This document shows positions 4,467-42,375 of a stretch of 48,325 bases of DNA, one piece after another. A program made the position numbers and the translations under genes. How positions within the stretch are numbered: position 1 is the stretch's first letter; each line of letters opens with the position of its first letter. This DNA comes from a virus (lineage: Duplodnaviria > Heunggongvirae > Uroviricota > Caudoviricetes): IMG/VR virus record IMGVR_UViG_2728369182_000007. One strand, 5' to 3'. The notes under the pieces were generated by a model that saw only the letters and a list, made by a program, of their open reading frames with translations, made no database searches and was not told where the DNA came from.

Positions 4467-5994
4467 CCCGTTATCCACGATGGCCTCTTTTTCCGGTACA
4501 TGCTGCACGGCAGTGATGGCATACGTGCCGTCATCGTTCTCACGGATACTCACACAGCGGAACAGGCGCTGGCGCAACGTTGGCAACTTCAGCCCCCACA
4601 CGCTGTATTCTGCAACGCCGTCAGGAACACGGCTCACTTTTACCTTCACGCCGTCGGTGACGGACTGGACCTCCACGCTGACCGGATTCCCCTGTCCGTC
4701 AGCCAGGCTTATCAGCGTGGTGCCGGAGGATGGCAGCGTGATTTCACGGTCGAGCGTCAGTGTCCGCGTCTGGTTGTTCACCGCCAGCACGCGCCCGCCG
4801 ATGCTGATCCCCGCATAGTCATCATCACAGATTTCAATGACATCGCCCGGTACATGGCGAAGCCCTTCTGCACCCACGCTGAAGTCCACGGTCTGCGTTT
4901 CCAGCAGCTCCGTTTTAATCAGCCACAGCCCGGCGCGGTGTGCCTGCCCCCGGCTGGTACAGCCAAAGGCATCCATCTTCGTGACGTTACGACCGTAACG
5001 GGCAATGGCCTGCGTGTCCTCCACAAGCTCTGTCGCCGTCTCCCAGCCGTTATCCGGGTCAATCCAGTTCACCTCAACGGCATTATGGCGGTCTTTCAGG
5101 GCGCTGAAGCTGTAGCGGAACGGCGCGCCATCATCCGGCATCACCACATTACTGCGGTTATAGGTCCACACCTTATCCGACGGTCGGTCCTGCACGAATG
5201 TCAGCGTCTGCCCGTTCCATACCGGCATACAGCGCATCGCCGAGCAAAAATCACTGAGCACATCCCACGCCTTGCGCTGTGTGGTCAGGTACGCATTACA
5301 GGTGATGCGCGGCTCCGTGCCGCCAAAGCCGTCCGGCACTGACTGGTCGCAATTCTGGCCGATGACATACAGCGCCCATTTATCCACATCTGCCGCACCA
5401 AGACGTTTCCCCATGCCGTAGCGCGGATGGGTCAGCATATCCCACAGACACCAGGCCATGTTGTTGCTGTATGCTGGCTTAAACGTTCCGTCCCAGATAC
5501 CGCTGTATTGCCGCGTCTGCGGGTTATAGTTCGACGGCACCTGCAGAATGCGCCCGCGAAGATGATAATTACGGCTCACCTGCTGGCTGCCGAACTGCTC
5601 CGAGTCCACCTGTACGCCGACCAGTGCCGTGTTCGGGTAGCACTGTTTCACATCGATGATTTCGGTGTATGACGACCAGAGCGTTTTGTTCTGCAACTGG
5701 TCTGTGGTGCTGTCCGGCGTCATCCTGCGCATCCGGATATTAAACGGGCGCGGCGGCAGGTTATCCACCACCACCGAGGCCAGATACTGCGACGTGGTTT
5801 TGCCCTTAATGGTGATGTCTTTTTCCGTCACCCAGCCACCGTTACGTTGAATCTGAACCAGCAGGCGGACTTCCGATGGATTCCTGTCCCCCTTTGAGGT
5901 GGTTTCCACCAGTGCCTGCACGCCGAAAGTAAAACGCAGACGGTCAATGTTTGCCGACGTGATGGTCCGGGTGATCGGCGTGTCATATTTCACT
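4467..5994 (-). CDS. J: host specificity protein J, central fragment between two gaps
   Basis: Translation ...KYDTPITRTITSANIDRLRFTFGVQALVETT... near-identical to the J copy at 6005-8143. Confidence 0.8.
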
Positions 5995-25827: not shown

Positions 25828-26178
25828 TCAATTGATGCGTTCGCGCGCTGTTTTTGCTTTATGACAGGGCCAGCACAGACTCTGCAGGTTACTGTCTGCA
25901 TCCGTGCCACCATGAGCTTTCGGAATGATGTGGTCCACAGTTCTGGCTTCAACGGCTCTCCCATTGCGCAGGCAGTTCTGACACAGATGATTATCACGCT
26001 TCAGTATGCGCGCACGTATGGCATCCCATTTCGAGCCATAGCCACGCTGGTGGCGGCTCAGTCCGCGTTGATGCTGTACCCATCCTTCGCCACGATGTTT
26101 ATCGCAGTAACCAGAACTGTCTGTGGTTGTACCTACACATCCACGCTTACGGCAGGCGCGTGGGATTCGTGATGGCAT
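25828..26178 (-). CDS. HNH endonuclease
   Basis: 116 aa with Cys-rich N-terminus and ...VDHIIPKAHGGTDADSNLQSLCWPCH... HNH motif. Confidence 0.8.
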   Translation of the reverse strand: MPSRIPRACRKRGCVGTTTDSSGYCDKHRGEGWVQHQRGLSRHQRGYGSKWDAIRARILKRDNHLCQNCLRNGRAVEARTVDHIIPKAHGGTDADSNLQSLCWPCHKAKTARERIN

Positions 26179-26220
26179 AAATACCTCATACCCTGCGAAA
26201 TGTTTACCACGATAAAAAGG

Positions 26221-26700
26221 CTACTTAATGCACTGAGTGCGGATATACTCCTGTGCCCCTTCCAGTTGCATCTGCATCGTCATCAGCCGCTCTCTGAGGG
26301 TGAAATAATCCCGTTCAGCGGTGTCTGCCAGTCGGGGGCTGGTTGCATTATCCACGCCGGAGGCGGTGGTGGCTTCACGCACTGACTGACAGACTGCTTT
26401 GATGTGCAACCGACGACGACCAGCGGCAACATCAGCGCGCAGAGTTTCATTTTCAGCTTTCGCATTGGCTAATTCTCTCGAGTACTTTGCATCGAGCGCA
26501 GCAACATCACGCTGACGCTGCTGCATGTCAGCGATGGTGGCGATCGCCTGCTTCAGCTCACTGACTTTTTTATCACGCTGTTCTTTGTAGGCGATGGCGT
26601 TATCACGGTAATGATTGACCGCCCACGACAGGCAGACGATGATGCAAATAACCAGAGCATAAATAATCGCGGCGACTCTGCTCACTGATCTATCCCCCAA
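26221..26700 (-). CDS. Rz: i-spanin Rz
   Basis: 159 aa, N-terminal TM then coiled coil; contains embedded Rz1. Confidence 0.8.
26283..26465 (-). CDS. Rz1: o-spanin Rz1 (lipoprotein embedded in Rz)
   Basis: 60 aa, lipobox LVVVGC, proline-rich PPPPPAW. Confidence 0.75.
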
Positions 26701-27215
26701 CAGGCTAATGCGCTTTCCTGGTCACGACGAATAACCTGTCCATAGCAGTTATTTGAACGTATGCGGCAATCGCGCCCACCATCTTTTATCCACCAGCGAA
26801 TCGCCTCGCATGCGCCCTTACGATCACCGGCATTCAGCCGCTTATAAAACGTCGACGGAAAACACTTACCGGGGCCAATGTTATAGGGACAGAATGACGC
26901 GATACCCGCTTTTTGTGGTTCGGTCATTGGTACTTTAATATTGCGCTCCACCCATGCCAGCGCCTTATCACGCTCAATGGCGTTGACCTGGTCGCATTTT
27001 TCCTTCGACAGTTTCATACCGGGAAAAACGGGTTTTCCATCCACCATCGTGGCACCCCGACAGATGGTCCAGATGCCGGCCCCATCGCGGTATGCCGTTG
27101 TGTGGTTACCTTCTTTTTCATCCAGAAACTGGTCAAGTATTTGAGGAGCAGACGCACCTGCAGCAATCAGCGCCAGAACCGCAGCTGACAGGCCGTATTT
27201 GATTTTTGCGCTCAT
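26682..27215 (-). CDS. R: SAR-endolysin (lysozyme, phage 21 R-type)
   Basis: 177 aa with weakly hydrophobic Ala/Gly-rich N-terminal signal-anchor-release segment followed by lysozyme-like domain; paired with pinholin. Confidence 0.8.
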
Positions 27216-27270
27216 GGATATTTATCAGGATGCTACCAATGAAAGATACTGGAAAGCCAACTGCAAAAAG

Positions 27271-27585
27271 CTAACAACCTGTAATCGAGTTATCAGAACT
27301 GTTAATTTTTATGGTATACCGCGCCTCTGAACAGGGGCGCGTTTCTGGCAACAGCTCGTCCCCTTCACATAACCCGGCAGCAACATCCAGGAAGACCTGT
27401 CTGATGCTCCTTCTGGCTGCTGCCTCATAAAACTCCAGCGCTGCACCTTCAACACGGTCCAGCGAGATGTCCAGGTCAAAAATTTCACCGTCAAAGCGTT
27501 TTTTGTCCCGTAACGCTAAAGTTACCGTAACTTTATTCTCAAAATTGCGGATCCCTTTCACAATCAGTTCATAGTTTTGAGTCAT
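27271..27585 (-). CDS. hypothetical protein (104 aa) inserted between holin and endolysin
   Basis: ORF; N-terminal ~100 aa homologous to the 297-aa protein at 35900-36793. Confidence 0.55.
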   Translation of the reverse strand: MTQNYELIVKGIRNFENKVTVTLALRDKKRFDGEIFDLDISLDRVEGAALEFYEAAARRSIRQVFLDVAAGLCEGDELLPETRPCSEARYTIKINSSDNSITGC

Positions 27586-27589
27586 TGAA

Positions 27590-27805
27590 TTACTCTCCCC
27601 GTGCAGCCTTACGCTTGTCTTCTCTGATTTTGAAGTACAGATTTGTCAGATAAGTCAGGAAGCCCAGAACCAGACTCCCCAGAACACCAATCGCAGCCCA
27701 CTGTGACGGACTGACCTGATCAAGCCACTGTAAAAACCAGTAGCCAGCACTGCCTGCGGAGGTGCCGTAGGCAATGCCCGTTGAAATTTTGTCCATGGAT
27801 TTCAT
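27590..27805 (-). CDS. S: pinholin (S21-like), dual-start MKSM
   Basis: 71 aa [71 protein letters not shown], matches phage 21 pinholin as recalled. Confidence 0.85.
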
Positions 27806-27865
27806 AGCCTCACCTCCGCAAATAACGGATGGCGTAGTTTTACACTGAGAAATGAAAGGGATTTG

Positions 27866-27890
27866 AAAAGAAAAACCCGCAAAAGCGGGC
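27866..27890 (-). terminator. terminator-like hairpin upstream of holin
   Basis: CCCGC-AAAA-GCGGG stem followed by U-tract on minus strand. Confidence 0.4.
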
Positions 27891-28097
27891 GAAACGATAT
27901 ATACAGAAAGGAAAGCACTCTATCCAACAAACCACCCACAGTTGATCGGAATAAAAGCAGAGTGCTTATGAATGATCGCCTGCCCGAAGGTTAGTATTTC
28001 TGCACAGCAATTTTGCAAAAAAAGGCGATCATTCATAACTTAAACGTCTTTCAGTCACTCCGGGATTTCCCATCATCGCAGACTGAAAGACTCTGAC

Positions 28098-28172
<75 letters not shown>

Positions 28173-28175
28173 ATA

Positions 28176-28251
<76 letters not shown>

Positions 28252-28253
28252 AC

Positions 28254-28330
28254 TGGACCGCCACCGGGGACTCGAACCTCGCACTCTCAACTTAAAGGGT
28301 TGACGCTCTTTCCTGATGAGCTAGTGGCGG
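28254..28330 (-). tRNA. tRNA-like gene with anticodon loop CCUUUAA (apparent anticodon UUU, C33)
   Basis: Manual fold: acceptor CCGCCAC/GTGGCGG, D-arm, anticodon stem TCAAC/GTTGA, T-loop TTCGAGT, CCA; non-canonical C at position 33. Confidence 0.5.
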
Positions 28331-28331
28331 T

Positions 28332-28407
28332 TGGTGGCCCTTGCTGGATTTGAACCAGCGACCTGGCGATTATGAGTCGCTCGCTCTCACCACTGAGCTA
28401 AAGGGCC
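28332..28407 (-). tRNA. ileZ: tRNA-Ile2 (anticodon CAU, ileX/ileZ-like)
   Basis: Manual fold; sequence GGCCCTTTAGCTCAGTGGTGAGAGCGAGCGACTCATAATCGCCAGGTCGCTGGTTCAAATCCAGCAAGGGCCACCA closely resembles E. coli ileX as recalled. Confidence 0.75.
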
Positions 28408-28529
28408 ATATGCGGAATAATACTTATGCCAGTTTAGCTCTGCAATACCCTACCCTGATTAAATCCTGCATATTGGCCTACACATGATAAAAGAATCTGA
28501 GCGGTCAACAGAAAGTTACTCAGGCAATA

Positions 28530-29249
28530 TTAACGAACTCTGACTACATTAATTTCAAAGTCATCAATCTGCCCGCTATTAAGTATAACGAATGCAGAAC
28601 TCCCATTACTGTACGATTTCGATAAAACCAGACGATCATCATAGCGTGCAAGAACGTAATACCAAGTATTCTCATAGTGGATCGTCTGATATTCCCTCTT
28701 AAACTGGGGTTTATACCAACCGGCAATAAGAGAGAATGTCCAGAAATAAATCATGAATCCAGCCATAATAAACTCAATTCGGTGATGGCGAATAAAAGAC
28801 ACTTCCGAAAAACATTTGACTGAAATAAGTCTTCTTCCTGACCTGACAAAAAGCGTAATTGTAAAGGCAGCAATAACACAAAAAAACAGCACATCTGGCT
28901 CAACGTGCTGATGAATTACCGAAAACTCCAGAACAGGCGGAATAAAAAGCAGCAATATTGCCAGAAAAAGTCTGATAAAACTCAAATTCTGTATATTGTT
29001 TTTTTGTTTTATGCCTAAAAAGAAAACAATACCTACTCCCCATCCAGTAAGGAATATAACGATAACGCTCACAGCATAAAACAAACTTCGGGCCACATCA
29101 TCAACGCCAACCCCGACGATCCACCATGGAAAGCCATAGTAAAAGGAAGTCCCCCATCCATAGAAATAAGCGCTTCCCCATCCAAGACAGCCCATATAAG
29201 CAATAAAAAGTGAAGAGTTCCTCAGCAGAGTGCTGTCATCCATACCCAT
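28530..29249 (-). CDS. AT-rich polytopic membrane protein of unknown function (239 aa), cargo gene between tR' and tRNA cluster
   Basis: ORF with 4-5 predicted TM segments rich in W/Y/F/G; local GC visibly lower than flanks; no family recognised. Confidence 0.55.
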   Translation of the reverse strand: MGMDDSTLLRNSSLFIAYMGCLGWGSAYFYGWGTSFYYGFPWWIVGVGVDDVARSLFYAVSVIVIFLTGWGVGIVFFLGIKQKNNIQNLSFIRLFLAILLLFIPPVLEFSVIHQHVEPDVLFFCVIAAFTITLFVRSGRRLISVKCFSEVSFIRHHRIEFIMAGFMIYFWTFSLIAGWYKPQFKREYQTIHYENTWYYVLARYDDRLVLSKSYSNGSSAFVILNSGQIDDFEINVVRVR

Positions 29250-29382
29250 CTCTCTAACAATTTTAAAACATCAACTCATCTTACATAACAAAGGAGATTC
29301 CATGCAGTCAAGAGACTTCAGAGCAGGAGAAACTCATTGCGCAATCGCCATCACGTTTAACGTTATGCACCGCTTTCCAGAT

Positions 29383-29408
29383 ATAAAAAACCCGCTCGAT
29401 GGCGGGCT
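29383..29408 (-). terminator. late terminator tR' downstream of Q
   Basis: CCCGC-TCGAT-GGCGGG hairpin followed by T6 on minus strand, ~85 bp downstream of Q stop. Confidence 0.65.
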
Positions 29409-29439
29409 GTAAAAATCCTTCTAACGTCAGGCATAAAAC

Positions 29440-29480
29440 GCCCATCGTTAGAGCAAATTTACCACAGATTCGGGAAAAAT
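29440..29480 (-). promoter_or_regulatory. candidate late promoter pR' / qut region
   Basis: Minus-strand TTGATT ... 16 nt ... TAAATT between Q stop and tR'; would make a short 6S-like transcript. Confidence 0.3.
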
Positions 29481-29488
29481 CAACAACA

Positions 29489-30310
29489 CTATCGCGTTAC
29501 CCTCTTTAACTGCCGCTCCGCCCATGCCTCTTCAATGTCAAACCGAACCACCAACGTATCGTAAAAGCGTTTCACTGATTTTTTCCACGTATCAAGCGTG
29601 ATAGCACTCGTCACTTTGCGTATGGCATTAAATGCCTCCGTTGATGGTAGTCTTTCATAGCCCCGACCGCCACAACGCTGGCAGTTCCTGATTACAGGCA
29701 TACCCCGTTTTTCCGACTCTTCACGATGAATGGCAACACCACGCCCACGGCAGTCTTTACAGGCAGTGGAAATCTCCCCCTTCCCTTTACATTCAGGACA
29801 AGAAACTTTCACCACCTCCCGGATTTTTTTCCATTCTTCCCAGTAAGACGGATACACACCTTTCGTACACTTTGCCCATACTGGCGGCTTGCCATCCGGA
29901 TACTGAACCTTGTTTGTAAAAACTTCGCTTTCAATAAATTTTTCCCCTCGGCAACAGGGGCACTGCTTTTTACTCGCTGCGCTGCGGGCATAATCCTCAA
30001 AAGCATACGAAGCCATAATGCGCATCACTGCCGGTTTTATTTCTGCCGGAAGTTTTCTTAACGCCGCCACGCGATCGCACTGACTTAATGCATAATCTGC
30101 CAGTAATTCTGTTGCCCGCGCCCTGTCATTCATACTAATACCCATTTTCCCCAGGAACGCAGAAAATCCCATCTCAGCCCGGTTTTGTGTCATACCCTGC
30201 GCAGCCATCACATCAGTGATGCTCAGCGCATCTTTTGACGTCGAGACGGATGCATCAGTCAGGCCTGGCGATTTTGGGGAATAGTATTTCGGTAAATCTT
30301 CCAGTCTCAT
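29489..30310 (-). CDS. late antiterminator Q-like protein
   Basis: 273 aa with multiple CxxC zinc-binding pairs, directly upstream of pR'/tR' and downstream of rusA as in DLP12/Qin prophages. Confidence 0.75.
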   Translation of the reverse strand: MRLEDLPKYYSPKSPGLTDASVSTSKDALSITDVMAAQGMTQNRAEMGFSAFLGKMGISMNDRARATELLADYALSQCDRVAALRKLPAEIKPAVMRIMASYAFEDYARSAASKKQCPCCRGEKFIESEVFTNKVQYPDGKPPVWAKCTKGVYPSYWEEWKKIREVVKVSCPECKGKGEISTACKDCRGRGVAIHREESEKRGMPVIRNCQRCGGRGYERLPSTEAFNAIRKVTSAITLDTWKKSVKRFYDTLVVRFDIEEAWAERQLKRVTR

Positions 30311-30684
30311 TTTTGGACCTGCCCGTCATGCATTATTTCGTAAATCTTCACGCCCAACCGACCACCAGGAACGAGCTGACCGCGCACAATATTGATTTCA
30401 TCAAACTGCTCGTCGTCTATAAGTAGTCCGGCATGCGTCAGCGCATCCAGTGGTGCTTTCAGGATATTGTCCAGGTCACGACGGCGCTTATCCGGTGGCT
30501 CTGCAATCACCTTTATCGCCAGCCTTCCGGACAGGTTTGATTTTAACCGCTGCCGGCGAACAATTAGCGCCACATCACGGCGATAACGCTCACCGACTTT
30601 TGATACAAAATATGTGTTGCCACGACGTCGCCAGTAAGTATTCACCGTCGGCGGATAAGGCAAAACAAACTCAATACGCATCAA
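30307..30684 (-). CDS. rusA: Holliday junction resolvase RusA
   Basis: 125 aa, MMRIEFVLPYPPTVNTYWRRRG... with conserved acidic residues; classic nin-region position. Confidence 0.85.
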   Translation of the reverse strand: MMRIEFVLPYPPTVNTYWRRRGNTYFVSKVGERYRRDVALIVRRQRLKSNLSGRLAIKVIAEPPDKRRRDLDNILKAPLDALTHAGLLIDDEQFDEINIVRGQLVPGGRLGVKIYEIMHDGQVQK

Positions 30685-30693
30685 TAACCTCTT

Positions 30694-31743
30694 TTACCCA
30701 AGCACGCCGGTTGCAAAGGCGTGATCAAGAAAACGAAAAATTAAATCAACCTGGGAACCATGCTTTTCTTCGAACGCCAGCGGATCCGCATGAAGTTCGT
30801 TGTGATGTTCCCGGCACAACGGTAGCGTGAAAATATCGTGGGCCTTTGTTCCCATCCCTCCCTGACCGTGACCAATCAGGTGATGGGGATCGTCGGCTGG
30901 CTGACCACAACACGCACACGGCTGTGTCTTCACCCAGCGCGTATATTTCTCATTTACCCAACGGCGACGTTTAGGTCGCCTCATGAAAGATTCCGGAGAG
31001 TCCGGATCAACGGCAATGCTGACCACCGCCTTTTCCAGTGGTGGGTTCTGTTGCTGGTGGAAGTGAGGCAACGGCGCAAGATTTTTTGTGCGCTGCTTTA
31101 GTATGCTGGTGGCGGTCTGCTCTCCCGGTACGATGTCGCTTTCGCGGTACACCGCGCGGATTTTTTCCGCACGTAACCCCAGAGAACGACGTAATACTGC
31201 CTCCGGAAGCGCGTCCGCCACTTGATTGCAGACCGCCCACCAGGATAATTCAGCCAGCGATAACTCCCGCTCCTGCGTGCCATTCATTGCATGGCGTATG
31301 ACGTCAATCATCCATGCTGCCAGGTTTTGTTGAGCAAGTTGCTCAAGTGATTCGGATGTCTGGTCACGCAGCTGGTTATCGCAGTGCCAGCACAACACCA
31401 TCGCGCCGGTGCCGTAACGATGTATGACGGTTTCACTGTGATGATAGTCACCATGAGGCCACTGGCAGGATTTGACATGACGCAACAGCCAGTCAGACAG
31501 TGCACCAGCGCCGCCAGCAGCACGAATCACACGCTCATTGCTGAAAAACCGCAGTAATGATTTATCCTCCGCCAGCGGCTGGCGAACGGCAGGGACGATG
31601 CCGGACGGCAGACCACGCATGCTTTTCGGTTCCGGCTCCACCAGCACTCGAGGGTTATGGAATACCTGCATGGATTCACGGCCTGGTTTAAGGACCACCA
31701 GCCCAAGTTCCGGTACCGGAACAGGTCGAAGTAATACCCGCAC
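30694..31743 (-). CDS. YdfU-like DUF968 protein
   Basis: 349 aa, C-terminal ...CACCGQPADDPHHLIGHGQGGMGTKAHD...PLCREHHNELH... motif; size and position match Qin ydfU. Confidence 0.75.
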   Translation of the reverse strand: MRVLLRPVPVPELGLVVLKPGRESMQVFHNPRVLVEPEPKSMRGLPSGIVPAVRQPLAEDKSLLRFFSNERVIRAAGGAGALSDWLLRHVKSCQWPHGDYHHSETVIHRYGTGAMVLCWHCDNQLRDQTSESLEQLAQQNLAAWMIDVIRHAMNGTQERELSLAELSWWAVCNQVADALPEAVLRRSLGLRAEKIRAVYRESDIVPGEQTATSILKQRTKNLAPLPHFHQQQNPPLEKAVVSIAVDPDSPESFMRRPKRRRWVNEKYTRWVKTQPCACCGQPADDPHHLIGHGQGGMGTKAHDIFTLPLCREHHNELHADPLAFEEKHGSQVDLIFRFLDHAFATGVLG

Positions 31744-31744
31744 G

Positions 31745-32020
31745 TTACCTCCAGATGCGTTGCTGGAATGTGCGGGACGGACGCGGTGGGCGCTCGGAGT
31801 ACGGCAGCCTGACGTAGATTATCCAGTGACGATAATCGAGGCTGAGGGCTTTCTTAACCTCGTATCCACGCCTGCGGTAACACTGAATTATCCATTCAGC
31901 CTGCTCTTCAGTGCATGGAGGATGCTGGAACCAGTCTGATTTGAATGCGTGAAAACGCCGTCCGCACCTGCTGGCAAAGACGGCAGAATCATTAGAATTG
32001 TGTAATTTGGTATCGTGCGC
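31745..32020 (-). CDS. hypothetical small protein (Rem-like position)
   Basis: Start placed at MAHDTKLH so the upstream terminator hairpin is outside the CDS; the six-frame ORF extends to 32152. Confidence 0.5.
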   Translation of the reverse strand, partial: AHDTKLHNSNDSAVFASRCGRRFHAFKSDWFQHPPCTEEQAEWIIQCYRRRGYEVKKALSLDYRHWIIYVRLPYSERPPRPSRTFQQRIWR

Positions 32021-32093
32021 CATCGGTTGTCTCTGCTGGCGCAGCAGGTGCCAGTTGTTCAGGCTGGCGTGCGAATTGTAAACCAGAATGCCA

Positions 32094-32121
32094 GGAAAAA
32101 ACAAAACCCGCCGAAGCGGGT
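32094..32121 (-). terminator. rho-independent terminator downstream of hok
   Basis: CCCGC-CGAA-GCGGG hairpin followed by TTTTGTTTTTT on minus strand. Confidence 0.6.
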
Positions 32122-32190
32122 TAAGTGCGGGTGCGTTGAGGATGCCTGACACATCAGAGGTGGCGAGGGATTTCTCCCCCGCCTGGTCTC

Positions 32191-32346
32191 TTACTCCTCA
32201 GGTTCGTAAGCTGTGAAGACAGCGACCTCCGTCTGGCCGGTTCGGATTCGTACCTCGCAGAGGTCTTTCCTCGTTACCAGTGCCGTCACTATGACGGTTA
32301 AACAGATGACGATCAGGGCGATTAACATCGCCTTTTGCTGCTTCAT
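32191..32346 (-). CDS. hok: Hok/Gef family type I toxin (HokD/RelF-like), 51 aa
   Basis: MKQQKAMLIALIVICLTVIVTALVTRKDLCEVRIRTGQTEVAVFTAYEPEE, Hok family signature with single TM and conserved Cys. Confidence 0.85.
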   Translation of the reverse strand: MKQQKAMLIALIVICLTVIVTALVTRKDLCEVRIRTGQTEVAVFTAYEPEE

Positions 32347-32583
32347 AGCCTGCTTCTCCTTGCCTTTCGGCACGTAAGAGGCTAACCTACATGTGTTCAG
32401 CATGGATTGAGCCTCAGATTAATGTTAAGCGTCTTGCAGGACGCGTAATGTTAACTGGGGCTTTTCTCTATCTGCCTTTTGGTGTTCATGCCTGAGGCAG
32501 ATAGCCTCAAGCACCCGCAGCAATTCTACTTAACTCACGTCACCTCGCCAATATGAAATCAATCAGAAAGGTGATCCATAAAA

Positions 32584-33270
32584 TCACTCCTTCTCTTCTT
32601 TTCCGTAGTGGAGTTGGCCAATTTTGATAAGAGGGCGCCCCTGAGATTTGCGGTGTAGATTGGTATCGCGCAGAGAATACACACAGCCACAATATTCCTG
32701 CTGATAGAATTTTTCGCGCTTGCTGATTTCAATCATACGGGACGAGCCGCCCTGCTTGCGCCAGTTATAATCCCAGTACACCATACCCGGATAATGCGCA
32801 ACAGCTCGCCGCCCACACTCGTTAACCTGCTGCATATTTTTCCAGCGTGAAATGCCCAGTGAACTGCTGATCACACTGAAACCATTTTCAGCAGCGTACA
32901 ACGCTGTCCGCTCAAAACGCATGTCAAAACACATGGTACAACGGATCCCCCTCTCAGGCTCCCATTCCATTCCTTTGGCACGTTCAAACCAGTTGTCGGT
33001 GTCGTAATCAGCATCGATAAACGGCACGCCGTGTTGTTCAGCAAAGCGAATATTTTCATCCTTACGAATTAAATACTCTTTCTGAGGATGAATGTTCGGG
33101 TTGTAGAAAAAGATGGTGTAGTCGATTCCCGAGGCCTGAAGCGCCTCCATCACTTCACCGGAACATGGAGCACAGCAAGAGTGCAGTAGTAGTTTGTTTG
33201 CCCCGTTTGGGAGCTCCAATTTAGGCCGTTTGAAATCAGCAATAGTCATAAATATTTTTATTGGGGTCAT
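32584..33270 (-). CDS. DUF208 / QueH-like protein (putative epoxyqueuosine reductase)
   Basis: 228 aa with N-terminal [14 protein letters not shown] motif and further conserved Cys ([16 protein letters not shown]); family assignment from memory. Confidence 0.5.
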
Positions 33271-33423
33271 GAAAATAGCACAGAGTGTAGCATCAGAGCA
33301 GGGCTATCGGGAATATATGTCTAAATCTGGTAATATCTGGTTTTGACGCAAAGCGGACAACCACGCTGGCTCTACCCTGCGCCATGAAAATGTCAATTCA
33401 CATCTGAACTAATGCTCTTTAAT

Positions 33424-33849
33424 CTAGTAACGTCTAAAATACCTAACATTTCCTTGATAAAATGCCAGTACACGCTGCATAGCTTCGCTCTTCCGGCACT
33501 CGCGACAGATTATATTCAGGCGCCTGTCGTAGCGGCGTATTTCGCCGTCTGGTAACGACCAGATAAGGTCCGGATCAACCGCAGATGGTTTATTCAGCTT
33601 TGCCCTTGAGAGCTTTTTACGGGCATTTTGCCAGTCCTTACGCGCCTGTTCAGACGGGAATAACCCGTAACCAGAGTTGTATACATCGCCACTGGCAACC
33701 AGCTCTCTGGCCAGAACGCTCATCAGATATCTTGTTGCCCCAGTTTTAGCTTCCAGTTGTCGTAACGTCTCGCGCCCACTCTGGCGTACGAGTTCAAGAA
33801 CCTGCCCTTTAATTTTTTCCCGCTCTTCTTGTGTAAAAACTTTTGCCAC
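33424..33849 (-). CDS. hypothetical protein (141 aa), repeated at 46191-46613
   Basis: ORF conserved in both nin regions. Confidence 0.5.
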   Translation of the reverse strand: MAKVFTQEEREKIKGQVLELVRQSGRETLRQLEAKTGATRYLMSVLARELVASGDVYNSGYGLFPSEQARKDWQNARKKLSRAKLNKPSAVDPDLIWSLPDGEIRRYDRRLNIICRECRKSEAMQRVLAFYQGNVRYFRRY

Positions 33850-33889
33850 AAGCCCTCCTGAAAATTACCTCATGACCAGAAATTAACAC

Positions 33890-34274
33890 TTACCCCCTGA
33901 AGCCCGGCGGAATTTCGTTATCCGGTTCAGAAATATGATTCACACAACGCTGGTTGTTCGTGCCGCTTACCGGGAGCAGCCAGGGGTTTTCAAAATTCCG
34001 GTCCGGTCCAAAAAACGTCGTCGCTCGCTGAACAAATTCCGTTCCCGTTTTCCCGGTAGCCGCCAGGTATCTTGCGTAACGCCTCACACCATCCAGCATG
34101 GCCTCTGGTGGCACCCCCTCGCGTAATCTGGCCTTCCAGGCACTGAAAGCGGATTTCTTCGGGTTTGCCCCAGCACGCAACGGGTATTCCCGCCAGACCT
34201 GTTCGAACACATCCGGATAATCCACTCGTCCCACAGGCTGCCCGGTGTTTTCCGGGACTACCCGATCGGCTTCC
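33890..34274 (-). CDS. C-terminal fragment of putative replication protein (copy of 46654-47040), truncated by gap
   Basis: Near-identical to the C-terminus of the 333-aa protein at 46654-47655; upstream end in N run. Confidence 0.5.
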
Positions 34275-34284
34275 NNNNNNNNNN
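34275..34284. other. assembly gap (10 N) joining nin-region fragment to a lysis cassette
   Basis: run of N; gene content either side is not contiguous in a phage. Confidence 1.
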
Positions 34285-34374
34285 CCCCGCACACTCGCGC
34301 AGAGGAGTCTCCCTGTCGGGCTGCGGTCTCTGTTAATGAGGGAATATAGCGACGATACGGCGCATCAACAAAAC

Positions 34375-34848
34375 TTATTTCAGGCACTGAGTGCGGATAT
34401 AGTCCTGTGCCCCTTCCAGTTGCTTGTGCATCGTCATCAGCCGCTCTCTGAGGGTGAAATAATCCCGTGTAACGGTGTCTGCCAGTTGGGGGCCGGTTGC
34501 ATTATCCACGCCGGAGGTGGTGGGGGCTTCACGCACGGAGCCTGGACAGGTGGCGTTGATCCGCAGGCGCTTACGACCAGCGGCAACGTCAGCGCGAAGA
34601 GTTTCATTTTCAGCTCTCGCATCGGCTAATTCCCTCGAGTATTTTGCATCGAGCGCAGCAACATCGCGCTGGCGCACCTGCATATCAGTAATGGTTGCGT
34701 TCGCCAGCTTCAGTTCACTGGCTTTGTTATCGCGCTGCGCTTTGTAGGTAATCGCGTTATCACGGTAATGGTCTGTTGCCATCCACAGCGCACCACAGGC
34801 CACCAGCAGAATAACGATAAACGCGGAAAGCATTCGGTTTATGTTCAC
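34375..34848 (-). CDS. Rz: i-spanin Rz (second lysis cassette)
   Basis: 157 aa, homologous to 26221-26700. Confidence 0.8.
34437..34622 (-). CDS. Rz1: o-spanin Rz1 (second lysis cassette)
   Basis: 61 aa lipoprotein with PPPPPAW motif embedded in Rz. Confidence 0.75.
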
Positions 34849-34976
34849 CCCAGCAACCCCGACGAAGACAACATCATCCAGGCCATGGAAAGAAAAAGAG
34901 CAACCAGCATTAGTGAAAATGAAATGCCGACAATTACACAGAGGATCTTCGCCAGCGTTATGAGTTTGTCTGACAT
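34845..34976 (-). CDS. small hydrophobic peptide (43 aa) between endolysin and Rz
   Basis: ATG at 34974-34976 preceded by AGGGAGGA RBS; [43 protein letters not shown]; stop overlaps Rz start. Confidence 0.45.
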
Positions 34977-34990
34977 GCTTAATCCTCCCT

Positions 34991-35137
34991 TCACGATTTC
35001 AACGCAATGACCAGTTTTGCCAGCCCATACAGCATCGGGGACACAGCAACACCGACCGCCACCCACTTAATGGCAAAAGCCAGTGCTCTGCTGATGTCAT
35101 CAGTTACAGGCGCTTTCAGTTCAAGGCCATTTTTCAT
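34991..35137 (-). CDS. small protein with C-terminal TM (about 48 aa) between endolysin and Rz
   Basis: ATG at 35135-35137 with GAGG RBS; alternative ATG at 35173; [48 protein letters not shown]. Confidence 0.35.
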
Positions 35138-35329
35138 AGTCAACCTCAACAGAATTCGTTTACACTTCGCCATGTTCTCCCTTGCCTTACTCAAGGTCAG
35201 AAACACAAAACCTCGCTTGGTGCCAACAAACGGGGTTTTTACTTTTATTCACTTACGTTTCGCCAGTTCGCAGGATTTCGTGTTATCCGCCCGCGTGGCC
35301 ATTCCTCATTTTTCAGCAAAATATTCTGC

Positions 35330-35863
35330 TTATCTGTCGATACCCCAGCACGCCAGCGCGCTCTCCTGGTCACGACGGGATACCTGACCGTAACAGTTGT
35401 TTGAACGAATACGGCAGTCTCTGCCACCGTCCTTAATCCACCAGCGAATCGCTTCGCAGGCACCTTTTCGATCACCAGCATTAATTCGTCTGTAAAACGT
35501 CGACGGGAAACACTTACCGGGACCAATGTTGTACGGACAGAATGACGCGATCCCCGCTTTCTGGGGTTCGGTCAGCGGCACTCTGATGTTTTTCTCCACC
35601 CACGCCAGCGCTTTATCACGCTCAATGGCGTTAACCTGGTCGCATTTTTCCTTCGACAACTTCATGCCCGGAACGACAGGTTTGCCATCCACCATGATGG
35701 CACCACGGCAGATGGTCCAGATACCTGCACCATCACGGTATGCCGTGGTGTGGTTGCCTTCCTTTTCATCCAGAAACTGGTCGAGAATGTCAGGCGCAGG
35801 CGCACCAGCGGCAATCAGCGCCAGAACGGCAGCCGACAGGCCGTATTTGATTTTGGTGTTCAT
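35330..35863 (-). CDS. R: SAR-endolysin (second copy)
   Basis: 177 aa, homologous to 26682-27215. Confidence 0.8.
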   Translation of the reverse strand: MNTKIKYGLSAAVLALIAAGAPAPDILDQFLDEKEGNHTTAYRDGAGIWTICRGAIMVDGKPVVPGMKLSKEKCDQVNAIERDKALAWVEKNIRVPLTEPQKAGIASFCPYNIGPGKCFPSTFYRRINAGDRKGACEAIRWWIKDGGRDCRIRSNNCYGQVSRRDQESALACWGIDR

Positions 35864-35899
35864 GGATATATTAAATATTCAGCCGCTGTCCCTGGCCCA

Positions 35900-36793
35900 C
35901 TAAATACGCACTTTAAGATAAGTCAGCCCCGGATGAAGCCAGTAAGCCGGCACTTTTTTAAAGGGTGGAGTATTAAAATCACGAAGAAGAGCCTCCCGCA
36001 CAATTGCATCCTTATCAGCACCACTGGCCAGCGCTTCAATCTCAGCGGCTACCTGAAGATATCCCATGCAACGGCCAACGCGCTTCATCAGCCCCTGCTT
36101 TTTATTGTTCTTCAGGTAATCAATGGCAAATTCAATGAGCTCCTCACTGTGCTGGTGCGATGGAGGTGTTACTTTCCCATTTTCTGAGATGGTTATTTTC
36201 CCAGCATCACCGGATACAACAAAGGATGGCCGGTTACACTCCCATTCCGGGTCACTGAAATTATCATTATGAATACTGAAACACTCTGCGAGATTTCTGC
36301 TCATCACTTTCCGACAATAATCGTCAAACGCAGCAAACTGCTTTTCATCGCCAGAAGGCACCAATATCGACCATTTCTTATTCAGCTCAACGACGTAGCT
36401 CTCCAGTTTTTCAATACGTGATTCAACATCATCTTTTTCTGACCGCAGTGTTGACGGCGGCATCTTCAGAGAACAAGTAATTCTTCCCGGTAGCTTTCCT
36501 TTGTAGGTTATCAACACATCCTGCGCCTCTAAAATTACGGGGCGCTTTTCCGGCAACGGTTCGTTCCATTCACATAACCCGGCAGCAACATCCATGAAAA
36601 ACTGCTTCGCCTGCTTTTTCGCCTCAGCTTCGTAAAACTCCAGCGTGGCACCTTCAGTACGGTCAAGACTAATCGCCACATCTGGCAACAACAGCGACGC
36701 TTGCCCGTCACCTTCCGACTTCACAGTAACAGTAACCTTATCCCCGTAATTATTTATCCCCTTAACAACCAGTTCATATTTTTTATTCATCAC
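35900..36793 (-). CDS. hypothetical protein (297 aa) between holin and endolysin
   Basis: N-terminal ~100 aa homologous to the 104-aa ORF at 27271-27585, plus ~190 aa extra C-terminal region. Confidence 0.55.
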   Translation of the reverse strand: MMNKKYELVVKGINNYGDKVTVTVKSEGDGQASLLLPDVAISLDRTEGATLEFYEAEAKKQAKQFFMDVAAGLCEWNEPLPEKRPVILEAQDVLITYKGKLPGRITCSLKMPPSTLRSEKDDVESRIEKLESYVVELNKKWSILVPSGDEKQFAAFDDYCRKVMSRNLAECFSIHNDNFSDPEWECNRPSFVVSGDAGKITISENGKVTPPSHQHSEELIEFAIDYLKNNKKQGLMKRVGRCMGYLQVAAEIEALASGADKDAIVREALLRDFNTPPFKKVPAYWLHPGLTYLKVRI

Positions 36794-36794
36794 T

Positions 36795-37010
36795 TTACTC
36801 TCCCCGCGCCGCCTTACGCCGGTCCTCTTTGATTTTGAAATACAGGTTAGTCAGGTACGTCAGCAGCCCAAACAGCAGACTCCCCAGCACGCCTATTGCC
36901 GCCCACTGAGACGGGGAAACCCTGTCCAGCAACTGCAGGAACCAGTAGCCCGTTCCCACCGCTGACGTGGTGTATGACACACCTGTTGTGATTTTTTCCA
37001 TCTGGTACAT
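36795..37010 (-). CDS. S: pinholin (S21-like), dual-start MYQM
   Basis: Start placed at [10 protein letters not shown]... (71 aa) by analogy with copy 1; six-frame ORF extends to 37064. Confidence 0.75.
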
Positions 37011-37086
37011 ACCCCGTCTCCCGTTATCCGGAAGCTCACAACAATATAAAGACCACCGGCACACACCGATGGTCCCTTGCGCAGGC

Positions 37087-37332
37087 TTACATCATCATGT
37101 CGCTGTCAGGTGTGGGTTCACCGCCATCTGAAGCACTCCCGTCACCCGCGATACCTTCCGGCTCCGGAACCGCTGGTACGCCCAGCAGCTCATCCAGAAT
37201 GGCATCCACTTCTGCATCAAGACGCGACTCAAGGTTCTGGCGGAGTTTCTGTTTCAGTGCGCTCAGGACTTCTTCAGAGCGCAGGACTTCCTTCACTGCC
37301 TCAGCAGTGACCAGGGATGTGATTTCTGACAT
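37087..37332 (-). CDS. hypothetical acidic protein (82 aa)
   Basis: Start placed at [16 protein letters not shown]...; between nanS-p and holin. Confidence 0.4.
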
Positions 37333-37369
37333 GGGATTTTCTCGTTGAAAGGTGTTGTCAAGAAAGTGA

Positions 37370-37552
37370 CTACGGAATGAGCGGATCTTCGGGTTTGCTT
37401 CCGGCTGACTGACTGGCGCTGATTCTCTCAGCGGCCCTTTTATCAATCTGCCTGCGCCAGAAATCGCGCACTGCCCTGTACCCACCCGAAAGAAGATACA
37501 TAACACAGACTGCCATACAGAAGTACAGCATTACCTGATGAATAAATGTCAT
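37370..37552 (-). CDS. hypothetical small membrane protein (60 aa)
   Basis: ORF with one hydrophobic segment directly downstream of nanS-p. Confidence 0.35.
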   Translation of the reverse strand: MTFIHQVMLYFCMAVCVMYLLSGGYRAVRDFWRRQIDKRAAERISASQSAGSKPEDPLIP

Positions 37553-37688
37553 AATTTCTTACCGTTATGGTTGACAATGAGAACTGTTTTCATTTAGAAA
37601 TGATTGATGTCGAAAGCATCTTTTCTTTACATTCTCCATTGGGATTACCTCCGCCAGCTTCCATTCCTGCCGCTGGCGGCTTTTTTTA

Positions 37689-39665
37689 TCATGCCGCGAT
37701 GTCCGCGTTGTTCACTTCCACCTTCACACTGTCAATCAGCAGCGTATATGTCGCCGCCTTTGATATGCCTGTCAGTTGCAGTTTGTCCGCCGCCCCTGAT
37801 GCCGGAGATTTCACCAGTGTGAACGGCGTCCCCCGTTTCTCATCCAGTACCGGCGTCACCTGAATGCTGTTGTTTCCGGCAAACTCAAAAGCCAGTGTGT
37901 GCCATCCGTTATCAAAGACCCCGAACGTTTCCAGCTTCGCATTCGGCTTCTTGTGGTGCATCGCGTTCAGGTTCGTCGCATCCGTCTGCAGAAAGAAGGA
38001 CATCAGCATGTCGTTGCCTTCCTCTGCCAGCGTCACTCCCTCCGGCAGGGACGACAACTGCCAGTAAATGCCCAGGGCAAACTGATTCGGCACCAGTGAA
38101 CCCGGCAACTTAAACCGTACGCTCACACGTCCCCCCTTCTTCAGTAACTCCACTCCCTGTCCGGCTGCATCATGCTCCAGAAACCAGATGTGGTTTTCCG
38201 GTTTATTCAGTTGCAGGGCCTTACCTCCCGTAGCCCCCGCATCACTGACCACCGCTTCAGCAATGTTTTTGTTAACATTGTCTCCGCTCGCCGGTTTGTG
38301 ATAATAGCGCCAGCCCTGTGATGCCAGGTCTTCGCCGGACGCCAGCAGACTCATCAGGGTTCGGTTACTGACCGGGGCTTCCGGCTCTCTCTCCGTACCT
38401 TCACCGGAAGGTCCGGTGGGCTTCACCGTATCAGGCTGTTTTCCGGTAATGAATTCAGCGTTTCTCCCGGCATGCACAAGAATCGCCGTTGCCAGACGGT
38501 CGGAAATAATCCCACGACGTGCCCATGATCCAAAATGCGTTTTACGGTCAGCCGTCGTCCAGGTTTTGGCGTCCGTTCGACCACCGGCTCCGTAATACCC
38601 AATATCCGCAACATCCGGATCTTCTGACGGCTCGTTGGTACCCACATTTCGCCCGTTTTCATCCGTCATAAACGGCACAAAGAAGATTTTTTTTGCGGAT
38701 TTCGTCTTGTATGCACCATACACCGCATCGTATTGCGAAGAATAAGTCTGCTTCCAGTAGTAGGTCGTGTCGCCACAAATCCAGGGAACCGATGACGGAG
38801 AGCCCCCGAGACACTGACCTCCGAATTCCGACAGGTCAGAACGATATTTTTCCACCATGGAATCAAACAGCCCCGGCTGGGTGGCGTATGCACCCTGTTT
38901 CAAATCAAACTCGCCCTGCATCCAGACCACTGCAAGCAGAATATTTTTAGGGTTGGCCTTCAGTGCGGCCTGAGTACGGGTAAGCAGGTCCTTGTACAGT
39001 GGCTTATCTACACCCCAGCGTGCCGAGGTCTCGCTTGCGCCGGTGGATTCGCTGAAGGTACCTTCATCGCCCGCCAAAAATGCAGAACCACCACGGCAGC
39101 ACGGAACCAGAAGAATACCGGCATTCGCCGGAATAAACGGCAACAATTTCTTCGCGATATGTAATCCCTGCCCCACGCATCCATACTGAGCTGCACTGGC
39201 TTTCGGGTGTGAAAACTTACTCAAATCCTGAACATCATGCAGGCAGTGGTCCGCAGGAATAATGTCATTGTAGTTACAGAACGCACCACCCGGCGTGACA
39301 GTGCTGCGACGCGCCAGCTGTTTAATACGCGGGTCCGGACGGTCATATGTCTCCGGCAGCGGAAGCCCTTCACCATACGCCATACCGTTTGACTGCCCGG
39401 CCAGGGCAACAACAAAGTAATACTCCGGGTTGCTGGTGGTGCTGATAACTGCGCCTTCTCCATCCGACGGCTTCACCACCACAGGTGTGGTGACATCACC
39501 TTCCGCCGCAATGGCCTGCATCAGGGTATAAGGCGTGATGGCCACCGGACTGCCAAATGGCTGCCACCCCTCCTTCAGTTTTTGTGTCAGTCGTTTCGCA
39601 AGGTCTGACGGCGATGCCGCCCTGACAACATCATAGTGTTTAAATGCCATGGTTCTTTCCACCAT
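37689..39665 (-). CDS. nanS-p: prophage sialate O-acetylesterase NanS-p-like (DUF1737 plus SGNH esterase)
   Basis: 658 aa; N-terminal MAFKHYDVVRAASPSDLAKRL... region and GQSNM esterase motif (…VALAGQSNGMAYG…); canonical position of this gene in Stx phages. Confidence 0.75.
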   Translation of the reverse strand: MVERTMAFKHYDVVRAASPSDLAKRLTQKLKEGWQPFGSPVAITPYTLMQAIAAEGDVTTPVVVKPSDGEGAVISTTSNPEYYFVVALAGQSNGMAYGEGLPLPETYDRPDPRIKQLARRSTVTPGGAFCNYNDIIPADHCLHDVQDLSKFSHPKASAAQYGCVGQGLHIAKKLLPFIPANAGILLVPCCRGGSAFLAGDEGTFSESTGASETSARWGVDKPLYKDLLTRTQAALKANPKNILLAVVWMQGEFDLKQGAYATQPGLFDSMVEKYRSDLSEFGGQCLGGSPSSVPWICGDTTYYWKQTYSSQYDAVYGAYKTKSAKKIFFVPFMTDENGRNVGTNEPSEDPDVADIGYYGAGGRTDAKTWTTADRKTHFGSWARRGIISDRLATAILVHAGRNAEFITGKQPDTVKPTGPSGEGTEREPEAPVSNRTLMSLLASGEDLASQGWRYYHKPASGDNVNKNIAEAVVSDAGATGGKALQLNKPENHIWFLEHDAAGQGVELLKKGGRVSVRFKLPGSLVPNQFALGIYWQLSSLPEGVTLAEEGNDMLMSFFLQTDATNLNAMHHKKPNAKLETFGVFDNGWHTLAFEFAGNNSIQVTPVLDEKRGTPFTLVKSPASGAADKLQLTGISKAATYTLLIDSVKVEVNNADIAA

Positions 39666-41047: not shown

Positions 41048-41160
41048 TACTTAACAGAACTTTTATTTTTGACAAACATAAAATATTTTCAACAATATCC
41101 TGAGCCAGGTATATTTCAGTATAAGGCTCTGCCGGAAGGAATCTGGAAGAATGAATATAG

Positions 41161-41234
41161 CGCGCTGTACTGGATTCGAACCAGTGACCGATTGCTTAGA
41201 AGGCAATTGCTCTGTCCGGCTGAGCTAACAACGC
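41161..41234 (-). tRNA. tRNA-Arg (anticodon UCU), CCA not encoded
   Basis: Manual fold: acceptor GCGTTGT/ACAGCGC, anticodon stem ATTGC/GCAAT, loop CUUCUAA, T-arm CACTGG-TTCGAAT-CCAGT. Confidence 0.7.
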
Positions 41235-41247
41235 TGAATACCGATAA

Positions 41248-41327
41248 TGGACCGCCATCGGGGACCCGCCCCCGCACCAACAACCCTGTTATCGTGTCGT
41301 CTGCTCTTCCTGATAAGCTAATGGCGG
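41248..41327 (-). pseudogene. degenerate tRNA-like sequence (homologue of tRNA at 28254-28330)
   Basis: Shares acceptor and D-arm with the copy-1 tRNA but no pairable anticodon stem or canonical T-loop found by manual folding. Confidence 0.4.
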
Positions 41328-41334
41328 TTTGTGA

Positions 41335-41410
41335 TGGTGGCCCTTGCTGGATTTGAACCAGCGACCTGGCGATTATGAGTCGCTCGCTCTCACCACTGAG
41401 CTAAAGGGCC
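41335..41410 (-). tRNA. ileZ: tRNA-Ile2 (anticodon CAU), second copy
   Basis: Identical or near-identical to 28332-28407. Confidence 0.75.
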
Positions 41411-41553: not shown

Positions 41554-42375
41554 TTACCTAGTTACCTTTTTTAACTGCCGCTCAGCCCATGCTTCTTCAA
41601 TATCAAACCGGGTCACCAGCGCATCATAGAATTTCTTAACTGTTTTTTCCCATGACGCGCGTGTTATCTGGTTTGTCACCTCGCATATAGCATTAAATGC
41701 CTCCGTTGATGGTAGTCTTTCATAGCCACGACCACCACAACGCTGGCAGTCTCTGATAACAGGCATACCACGTTTTACCGACTCTTCACGATGAATGGCG
41801 ACACCACGCCCACGGCAATCCTTACAGGCGGTGGAAACCTCACCCTTTCCGCCACACTCCGGACAGGCAACTTTTACCACCTCCCTGACTTTTTTCCATT
41901 CTTCCCAGTAAGACGAATACACACCTTTCGTACACTTTGCCCATACCGGCGGCTTACCATCCGGATACTGGACCTTGTTTGTAAAAACTACGCTTTCAAT
42001 AAATTTTTCCCCATAGCAACAAGGGCACTGCTTTTTACTCGCTGCGCTGCGGGCATAATCCTCAAAAGCGTACGAAGCCATAATGCGCATCACTACCGGT
42101 TTTATTTCTGCCGGAAGTTTTCTCAACGCCGCCACACGATCGCACCGACTGAGTGCATAATCTGCCAGTAATTCTGTTGCCCGCGCCCTGTCATTCATAC
42201 TGATGCCCATTTTCCCCAGGAACGCAGAAAAACCCATCTCAGCCCGATTCTGTGTCATGCCCTGCGCGGCCATCACATCAGTGATACTCAGCGCATCTTT
42301 TGACGTTGAGGCCGATGCATCGGTCAGGCCAGGGGATTTTGGGGAGTAGTATTTCGGTAAATCTTCCAGTTTCAT
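41554..42375 (-). CDS. late antiterminator Q-like protein (second copy)
   Basis: 273 aa, ~95 percent identical to 29489-30310 by eye. Confidence 0.75.
   Translation of the reverse strand: MKLEDLPKYYSPKSPGLTDASASTSKDALSITDVMAAQGMTQNRAEMGFSAFLGKMGISMNDRARATELLADYALSRCDRVAALRKLPAEIKPVVMRIMASYAFEDYARSAASKKQCPCCYGEKFIESVVFTNKVQYPDGKPPVWAKCTKGVYSSYWEEWKKVREVVKVACPECGGKGEVSTACKDCRGRGVAIHREESVKRGMPVIRDCQRCGGRGYERLPSTEAFNAICEVTNQITRASWEKTVKKFYDALVTRFDIEEAWAERQLKKVTR

Follow-up and report, generated by a model that had tools for sequence, protein, structure and literature searches.

A long YdfR-family (DUF1327) gene with a conserved orphan C-terminal domain in a lambdoid lysis cassette

The two lysis cassettes and their ydfR-family genes

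The DNA analysed here, referred to as the window, is a stretch of 48,325 nucleotides containing two lysis cassettes, both encoded on the minus strand. In cassette 2, the long ydfR-family gene is located at 35900..36790 and has 296 codons plus a stop codon. An open reading frame is present at 35900-36793, but its GTG start at 36793 was assigned mechanically and lies 3 nt 5' of the database ATG; the public proteins start from this ATG, at 36790 (MNKK..., 296 aa), 4 nt past the S stop codon and has GGAG upstream. The preceding gene, S (36795..37010; 71 aa; PF04971, E=1.5e-32), encodes a P21-type class II holin of the pinholin type and is labelled holin in NZ_CP023820.1. The gene is followed by R (35330..35863), identified from PF00959 and its sequence as a lysozyme with a SAR-like N-terminus, and by the spanin gene Rz (34375..34848), with Rz1 embedded at 34437-34622. 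Cassette 1 has the corresponding genes: S (27590..27805; 71 aa; PF04971, E=1.4e-35), a short ydfR-family gene (27271..27585; 104 aa, N-domain only), R (26682..27215; PF00959), and Rz (26221..26700; Rz1 at 26283-26465). Both R proteins have a hydrophobic N-terminus rich in Gly and Ala. A preliminary description of this DNA had reported an extra gene between S and R in both cassettes, and this arrangement was confirmed, with a PF04971 gene upstream and a PF00959 gene downstream in each case.

Each cassette belongs to a late operon headed by a gene for antiterminator Q on the minus strand, located at 41554..42375 for cassette 2 (PF03589, E=6e-55) and at 29489..30310 for cassette 1 (PF03589, E=1.4e-50). 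A simple scan for a promoter-like site belonging to the long ydfR-family gene itself found none. The location of the gene in a Q-dependent operon, tight behind S and with no such site of its own, agrees with the earlier proposal that it is co-expressed with the lysis genes.

The cassettes are contained in two near-duplicate blocks (26.2-32.5 kb and 34.4-44.6 kb) that are mutually 71-96% identical and have the same order: nin genes, Q, tRNAs, accessory genes, S, ydfR, R, and Rz. A run of 10 Ns at 34275-34284 joins the two blocks, and the window contains nine other N runs. Identity of 99.8% with a prophage of E. coli strain 7/2 ends precisely at the 10-N run. Given this run, and given that 26000-38000 was not contiguous in any complete E. 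coli genome, the two cassettes may stand next to each other through a scaffold join.

Other features of the blocks are as follows. A 71-aa ORF of the phrog_1115 type at 34991-35206 (minus strand), between R and Rz of cassette 2, has a hydrophobic C-terminal half; it has no counterpart in cassette 1, and the equivalent stretch of NZ_CP023820.1 is annotated with small hypothetical proteins. The S gene of phage 21 has a dual-start motif in which two Met codons have a Lys between them, and the phage 21 antiholin is thought to arise from the extra charge on the longer form of S. Cassette 1 S begins at 27805 with MKSMDK, which also has Lys between two Met codons; cassette 2 S begins at 37010 with MYQMEK and has no positive charge between them, so that its longer form would not have the extra charge of the phage 21-type antiholin. 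Upstream of cassette 2 S are ORFs with DUF826 (37087-37506) and DUF1378 (37370-37552) and a gene for a 658-aa NanS-p-like esterase (37689-39665; DUF1737 + SASA + DUF6645), all on the minus strand. This layout is the one found downstream of stx in Stx phages; there is no stx gene here. The tRNA genes between Q and the lysis genes are located at 28098-28407 and 41160-41410 (minus strand), with Gly-TCC, Thr-TGT, Lys-TTT, and Met-CAT in one block and Arg-TCT and Met-CAT in the other. In block 1, a hydrophobic-looking 239-aa ORF with no Pfam match (28530-29249) occupies the gap between Q and the tRNAs, and the nin region contains a homologue of QueH, epoxyqueuosine reductase (32584-33270, minus strand; PF02677, E=1e-65).

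The preliminary description noticed the extra gene but did not recognise its family, which is YdfR/DUF1327. With the gathering threshold of 25 bits as the criterion, Pfam DUF1327 (PF07041) matched the N-terminal ~90 residues of both copies, giving 137.9 bits (E=1.3e-40) for the long copy and 132.8 bits (E about 1e-40) for the short copy. Pairwise BLASTP of the long and short products gave 49/88 identities (56%; E=6e-30) over residues 1-85, which bears out the N-terminal homology of the two copies claimed earlier. Beyond the N-terminal part common to both, the long copy has ~195 residues by our count, close to the ~190 first given. PHROG 1085, annotated as 'unknown function', matched the long copy end to end (E=3.1e-190; residues 2-297 against profile positions 1-296). 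There is no NCBIfam model for the long copy.

The long-copy DNA was 100% identical in >400 complete E. coli genomes, where it is labelled 'YdfR family'. The full-length long copy was present in 496 of 5426 complete E. coli genomes, and the short-allele DNA was matched in 4249 of the same 5426 (~78%). Each exact protein, long or short, is found on at least 1000 public contigs under the name 'YdfR family protein' or 'DUF1327 domain-containing protein'. Sequenced phages with the gene include Stx1a, Stx2a, and Stx2c converting phages, BP-4795, and YYZ-2008; in many Stx-converting phages it is located in the late-operon lysis cassette a few kb downstream of stx. The Qin prophage of K-12 has the order essQ-ydfR-rrrQ, matching S-ydfR-R of both cassettes. 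The gene therefore belongs to an already catalogued family and is a very common E. coli prophage gene. It is dispensable and occupies a holin-adjacent slot in lambdoid late operons. In the literature, this gene is passed over in surveys of the lysis regions of Stx phages, and the sole paper found that names DUF1327 does so in passing.

Modules of the long product and the origin of the short copy

In an alignment of 38 homologues the long product showed three modules: an N-domain that is DUF1327, a variable middle with a coiled coil, and a C-domain of 116 residues, all encoded on the minus strand. The N-domain (residues 1-80; 36551..36790) was modelled by AF2 as three strands plus a long helix. 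The variable middle (residues 81-180; 36251..36550) had low AF2 confidence and has frequent indels among alleles. It consists of a linker (residues 81-119), a conserved heptad-like helix with the sequence DDVESRIEKLE..ELNKK (residues 120-150), and, after residue 150, a variable stretch with large indels. A coiled-coil helix was predicted for residues 116-143 (36362-36445), and it probably drives oligomerisation. The C-domain (residues 181-296; 35903..36250) is an orphan alpha/beta domain in which three strands are combined with four helices; its motifs are GRCMGxLQVAAEIE and NPPFK...W..PG..YLK. Invariant or near-invariant residues include H214, G239, R240, L245, Q246, A248, E250, P275, P276, K278, W284, P287, and Y291.

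The AF2 model of the full-length product was poor (pLDDT 52), with helices predicted for residues 116-170. The C-domain modelled alone, from an input alignment that took in the Salmonella relatives described below, gave a pLDDT of 89.8 and a pTM of 0.83. The long product has a mass of 33 kDa and a pI of 6.0; its N-domain is acidic (pI 4.7) and its C-domain is mildly basic (pI 8.7). Neither a transmembrane segment nor a signal peptide was found in it, the highest 19-residue Kyte-Doolittle mean being 0.75, and the protein is therefore presumably cytoplasmic. Apart from the relatives discussed below, the C-domain gave no fold match and no sequence match, and neither Pfam nor NCBIfam has a model for it. 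Profile searches with the C-domain and the N-domain against PDB sequences gave nothing below E=0.2, and no homology to a virion protein was found. An internal duplication, with the N- and C-domains each having three strands plus a helix, was considered and rejected (hhalign probability 0.3%). The alternative C-terminal modules of other alleles (P0057, P0051, and others) had no known Pfam domain, and domain fusions thus provided no functional clue.

In at least one RefSeq genome, NZ_CP023820.1, PGAP called this gene a pseudogene, 'YdfR family protein, incomplete, missing C-terminus' (L001:12004-12339). The call spans only the first 336 nt (112 codons) of the 296-aa gene; because it ends at codon 112, the conserved C-domain is unannotated in that genome, although identical proteins are called elsewhere. 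The pseudogene call and the lack of a Pfam or NCBIfam model would fit a non-functional extension resulting from accidental read-through or fusion, but the sequence comparisons argue strongly for the opposite. Nei-Gojobori dN/dS values for the C-domain against four alleles were 0.20, 0.17, 0.21, and 0.22, indicating purifying selection; those for the variable middle were 0.36-0.53. In alleles of 268-333 aa that are 55-78% identical, the frame is open from start to stop and indels never break it, and it is also open in the Salmonella relatives, whose C-domains are 35-45% identical to that of the window and retain the motifs without change. The confident prediction of the C-domain fold and the occurrence of stand-alone C-only genes in the same slot weigh in the same direction. 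A non-functional extension is effectively refuted by selection, fold, frame conservation, and the C-only genes, and we consider it extremely improbable. Having rejected the pseudogene or read-through reading on the basis of the C-domain dN/dS values, the open frames, and the Salmonella relatives, we concluded that the long form is a genuine protein of two domains and that its C-terminal extension is real coding sequence.

Allele P0022 (296 aa, 129 contigs) consists of the copy 1 N-domain joined to the remainder of copy 2. Its dS relative to copy 2 was 1.28 in residues 1-80 and at most 0.016 beyond, a step indicating a clean recombination breakpoint after the N-domain. A survey of 78 complete IMG/VR loci, all of them carrying the C-domain, contained 38 N+C genes (296 or 329 aa), 29 C-only genes, and 11 that were odd or frameshifted. 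The C-only genes of this survey have 185 aa and begin at the coiled coil; Stx2a phage 12E129_yecE has a 213-aa C-only gene in the same slot. The gene starts 3-4 nt past the S stop codon in 67 of the 78 loci and ends 36-42 nt before R in 77 of them. The commonest forms are N-only genes of 103-114 aa; K-12 ydfR, copy 1, and the gene of BP-4795 are examples. Because C-only alleles are common in the slot, the C-domain has a function independent of the N-domain.

A search with the C-terminal 186 residues against 1.84 billion representative proteins gave 27 matches only, and the distant ones were Salmonella enterica hypothetical proteins of 190-340 aa, together with a few from other assemblies, with the three-part layout. 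The Salmonella and DUF1327 N-domains were matched by hhalign with a probability of 91% (E=1.1e-6, 62 columns). One of these proteins, P0128, had a sub-threshold Pfam DUF1327 match (E=0.004) and matched PHROG 1085 over residues 2 to 266. At the DNA level, copy 1 and its flanks align with the 287-aa allele P0032 from S to about codon 102; ~590 nt of P0032 are then missing in copy 1, and homology returns just before R. The preliminary description had interpreted the extension as a domain gain in copy 2. Since the N+C layout is common to Salmonella and since ~590 nt are missing from copy 1, loss is likelier than gain. Judged from these alignments, the two-domain form is probably the older one, and copy 1 would be its derivative by truncation or recombination; because C-only forms are also found in the most divergent lineage, we infer the truncation rather than observe it.

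Neighbourhood of the gene outside E. coli

In all five Salmonella loci Q lies upstream of the gene, which often follows a hicAB pair, and the holin gene comes directly downstream. Two further divergent loci, one of them most similar to Klebsiella phages, likewise have the gene directly upstream of a holin gene. The adjoining holins fall into five Pfam families (PF16080, PF04971, PF05106, PF16931, and PF05449), and at least two families (PF00959 and GH19) are represented among the endolysins at these loci. Because the gene was upstream of the holin gene in seven of seven divergent loci, the conserved feature is a late-operon position next to the holin gene, and not a position between S and R. 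The range of the gene is narrow, comprising Escherichia/Shigella, Salmonella, and two other assemblies, one of which is Klebsiella-phage-like. A scan of one genome per species gave three loci only, all from Escherichia or Shigella, and therefore yielded no wider context. A terminator-like GC-rich hairpin with a T run was seen in Salmonella just 5' of the YdfR-like gene (L004 ~4850-4900 and L006 ~4930-4970); a hairpin 5' of S in the window (37048-37077, minus strand) resembles it.

Several divergent loci have a convergent ORF of ~100 aa located after the gene and overlapping its 3' end. One type, phrog_1853 (~105 aa), was found at L003:3645-3959, L006:5771-6091, and L100:6412-6735, on the minus strand, where it overlaps or abuts the 3' end of the C-domain gene; the overlap measures 18 nt in L100 and 4 nt in L006. 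It is common to an E. coli Stx2a phage, Salmonella, and the Klebsiella-like contig (pairwise E values of 6e-33, 3e-6, and 1e-7). The phrog_1853 ORF was absent from the window and from 80 loci with a C-domain 92-100% identical to that of the window. The C-domain gene and the phrog_1853 ORF may form a two-gene module. A second, weakly related type of convergent ORF was observed in L004, L015, and L098.

These analyses add to the preliminary description in three respects: they establish the C-terminal extension as an orphan domain that is conserved and structured, they indicate that the long form is probably ancestral, and they follow the holin-adjacent synteny across genera.

Candidate functions and comparison with known systems

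A functional lead comes from K-12 YdfR, which emerged from a two-hybrid library screen in which residues 1-72 were sufficient (PMC13232886, RNA Biol 2026). In two-hybrid assays K-12 YdfR interacted with Rne 1-597, the catalytic half of RNase E, and for the full-length fusion this interaction was the only one; in addition, Rne 1-598 co-eluted with Strep-YdfR, and DNase-resistant nucleic acid (RNA) co-purified with YdfR (PMC13232886). Because no nuclease treatment was included, bridging of Rne and YdfR by RNA is possible (PMC13232886). Overexpression of YdfR changed few transcripts and left growth unaffected (PMC13232886). Within residues 1-72, copy 1 is identical to K-12 YdfR at 59 of 72 positions. 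Copy 2 has 47% identity to K-12 YdfR over 78 residues, and at that level the RNase E property may not transfer.

The long copy is a full-length two-domain YdfR allele, and the short copy is an N-domain-only allele of the same locus, probably a truncated one. As the function of the long product we tentatively propose, by analogy with the K-12 protein, a late-expressed soluble adaptor acting on host RNA metabolism; this proposition is doubtful, but we prefer it to the other functional readings. In such an adaptor the N-domain would dock on the catalytic half of RNase E, on RNA, or on both, as is reported for residues 1-72 of K-12 YdfR; the coiled coil would oligomerise the protein; and the C-domain would bring a second partner or activity. 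The expected outcome would be altered RNA turnover in the last minutes before lysis and not breakage of the envelope. Several points weigh against this reading. The evidence on RNase E was obtained with the short K-12 protein, in a screening study; the acidity of the N-domain is unusual in a protein that binds RNA directly; and nothing ties to RNA the function that the C-domain has without the N-domain in the common C-only alleles. The location of relatives beside five holin families fits a lysis-related role at least equally.

The main rival of the RNA adaptor, which we regard as unlikely, is a soluble cytoplasmic regulator of lysis timing that is made with the holin and delays or sharpens its triggering, acting like P1 LydB or T4 RIII without kinship to either. 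The close spacing behind S in the window and in most of the surveyed E. coli loci, the holin-adjacent position in every divergent locus (five Salmonella and two others), and the precedent of P1 lydA-lydB, a holin followed by a soluble antagonist, all fit this reading. The K-12 ydfR deletion is among the hits of an envelope-leakiness screen (PMC3879167, supplement), which also points toward lysis; we suspect, however, a polar effect on the downstream lysozyme gene rrrQ. The five neighbouring holin families are unrelated, and this speaks against direct holin contact as a conserved property. Moreover, homology of the long copy to LydB was rejected (BLASTP E=2.9; hhalign probability 0.1%); N-only and C-only alleles both persist; and no lysis phenotype has been reported. 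Lambda, 21, and 933W, all of them characterised lambdoid phages, lyse although they are not known to carry such a gene, which also counts against a lysis-timing regulator. A holin or membrane antiholin was rejected because the product has no transmembrane segment and matched no holin Pfam family, and an endolysin or spanin because Pfam finds DUF1327 only and there is no hydrophobic segment. The suggestion of a lysis regulator in the preliminary description thus gained no positive evidence from the protein itself, nor from its position outside E. coli, upstream of holins from several unrelated families; that of a lysate-released factor found no support, since the product has no export signal.

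An arms-race accessory gene, serving counter-defence or inter-phage competition with modules that diversify by recombination and with no specific link to RNase E or lysis, seems to us less probable again. It would account for the extreme mosaicism, the presence or absence of modules, the synonymous saturation of N-domain alleles (dS >1), the narrow taxonomic range, and the dispensability of the gene, and the convergent ~105-aa phrog_1853 ORF of some phages, suggesting a two-gene module, fits it as well. However, the search of PADLOC-DB 2.0 gave no significant match: the best for the long copy was PbeC (E=0.018, 11 bits), and neither the short copy nor the Salmonella relatives had any match. 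With no promoter-like site before the gene, expression from a repressed prophage is not expected, and counter-defence genes are usually early and not late; both points count against an arms-race gene. It is similarly improbable, though conceivable, that the protein is a two-headed temperate-phage adaptor, with the N-domain on RNase E or RNA and the orphan C-domain on a second target, that reprogrammes RNA decay or gates the holin; in some phages the C-domain would then be kept alone and paired with the ~105-aa convergent gene. If true, such an adaptor would represent a soluble, non-envelope class of protein in lambdoid lysis cassettes, built around a new fold.

The C-domain is a new domain for annotators to define, and the natural N-only, C-only, and N+C alleles in one slot provide separable modules for experiments. 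If a role in RNA decay or in lysis timing is true, the protein could influence when toxin and phage are released and in what amount.

Among known systems, K-12 YdfR (b1555, P76160; Qin) is homologous in the N-domain, has 68% overall identity to copy 1, and occupies the same slot as the genes of the window, between essQ (S) and rrrQ (R). It is a 103-aa N-only form, however, without the coiled coil and C-domain of copy 2, and its stop codon overlaps the rrrQ start, unlike that of the long copy. The 296-aa public YdfR family protein of PHROG 1085 is the same protein as copy 2, with no difference. The Salmonella enterica prophage proteins (225-338 aa; P0155, P0170, and P0128) share with copy 2 the three-part architecture and a late-operon location beside the lysis genes. 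They differ from it in overall sequence (28-32% identity, with the C-domain better conserved), in being encoded upstream of the holin gene instead of between the holin and endolysin genes, and, for some, in having a small convergent ORF in between. P1 LydB, the soluble antagonist of the holin LydA, resembles the product of the window gene in the order of holin gene and then soluble-protein gene and in late expression, and is a possible functional analogue of long YdfR, although the two have no detectable sequence or profile similarity. T7 gp0.7, phiKZ Dip, and T4 Srd are modulators of RNase E from virulent phages and act earlier in infection. They target host RNA decay, as the RNase E lead implies for YdfR, whereas YdfR belongs to temperate phages and is expressed late.
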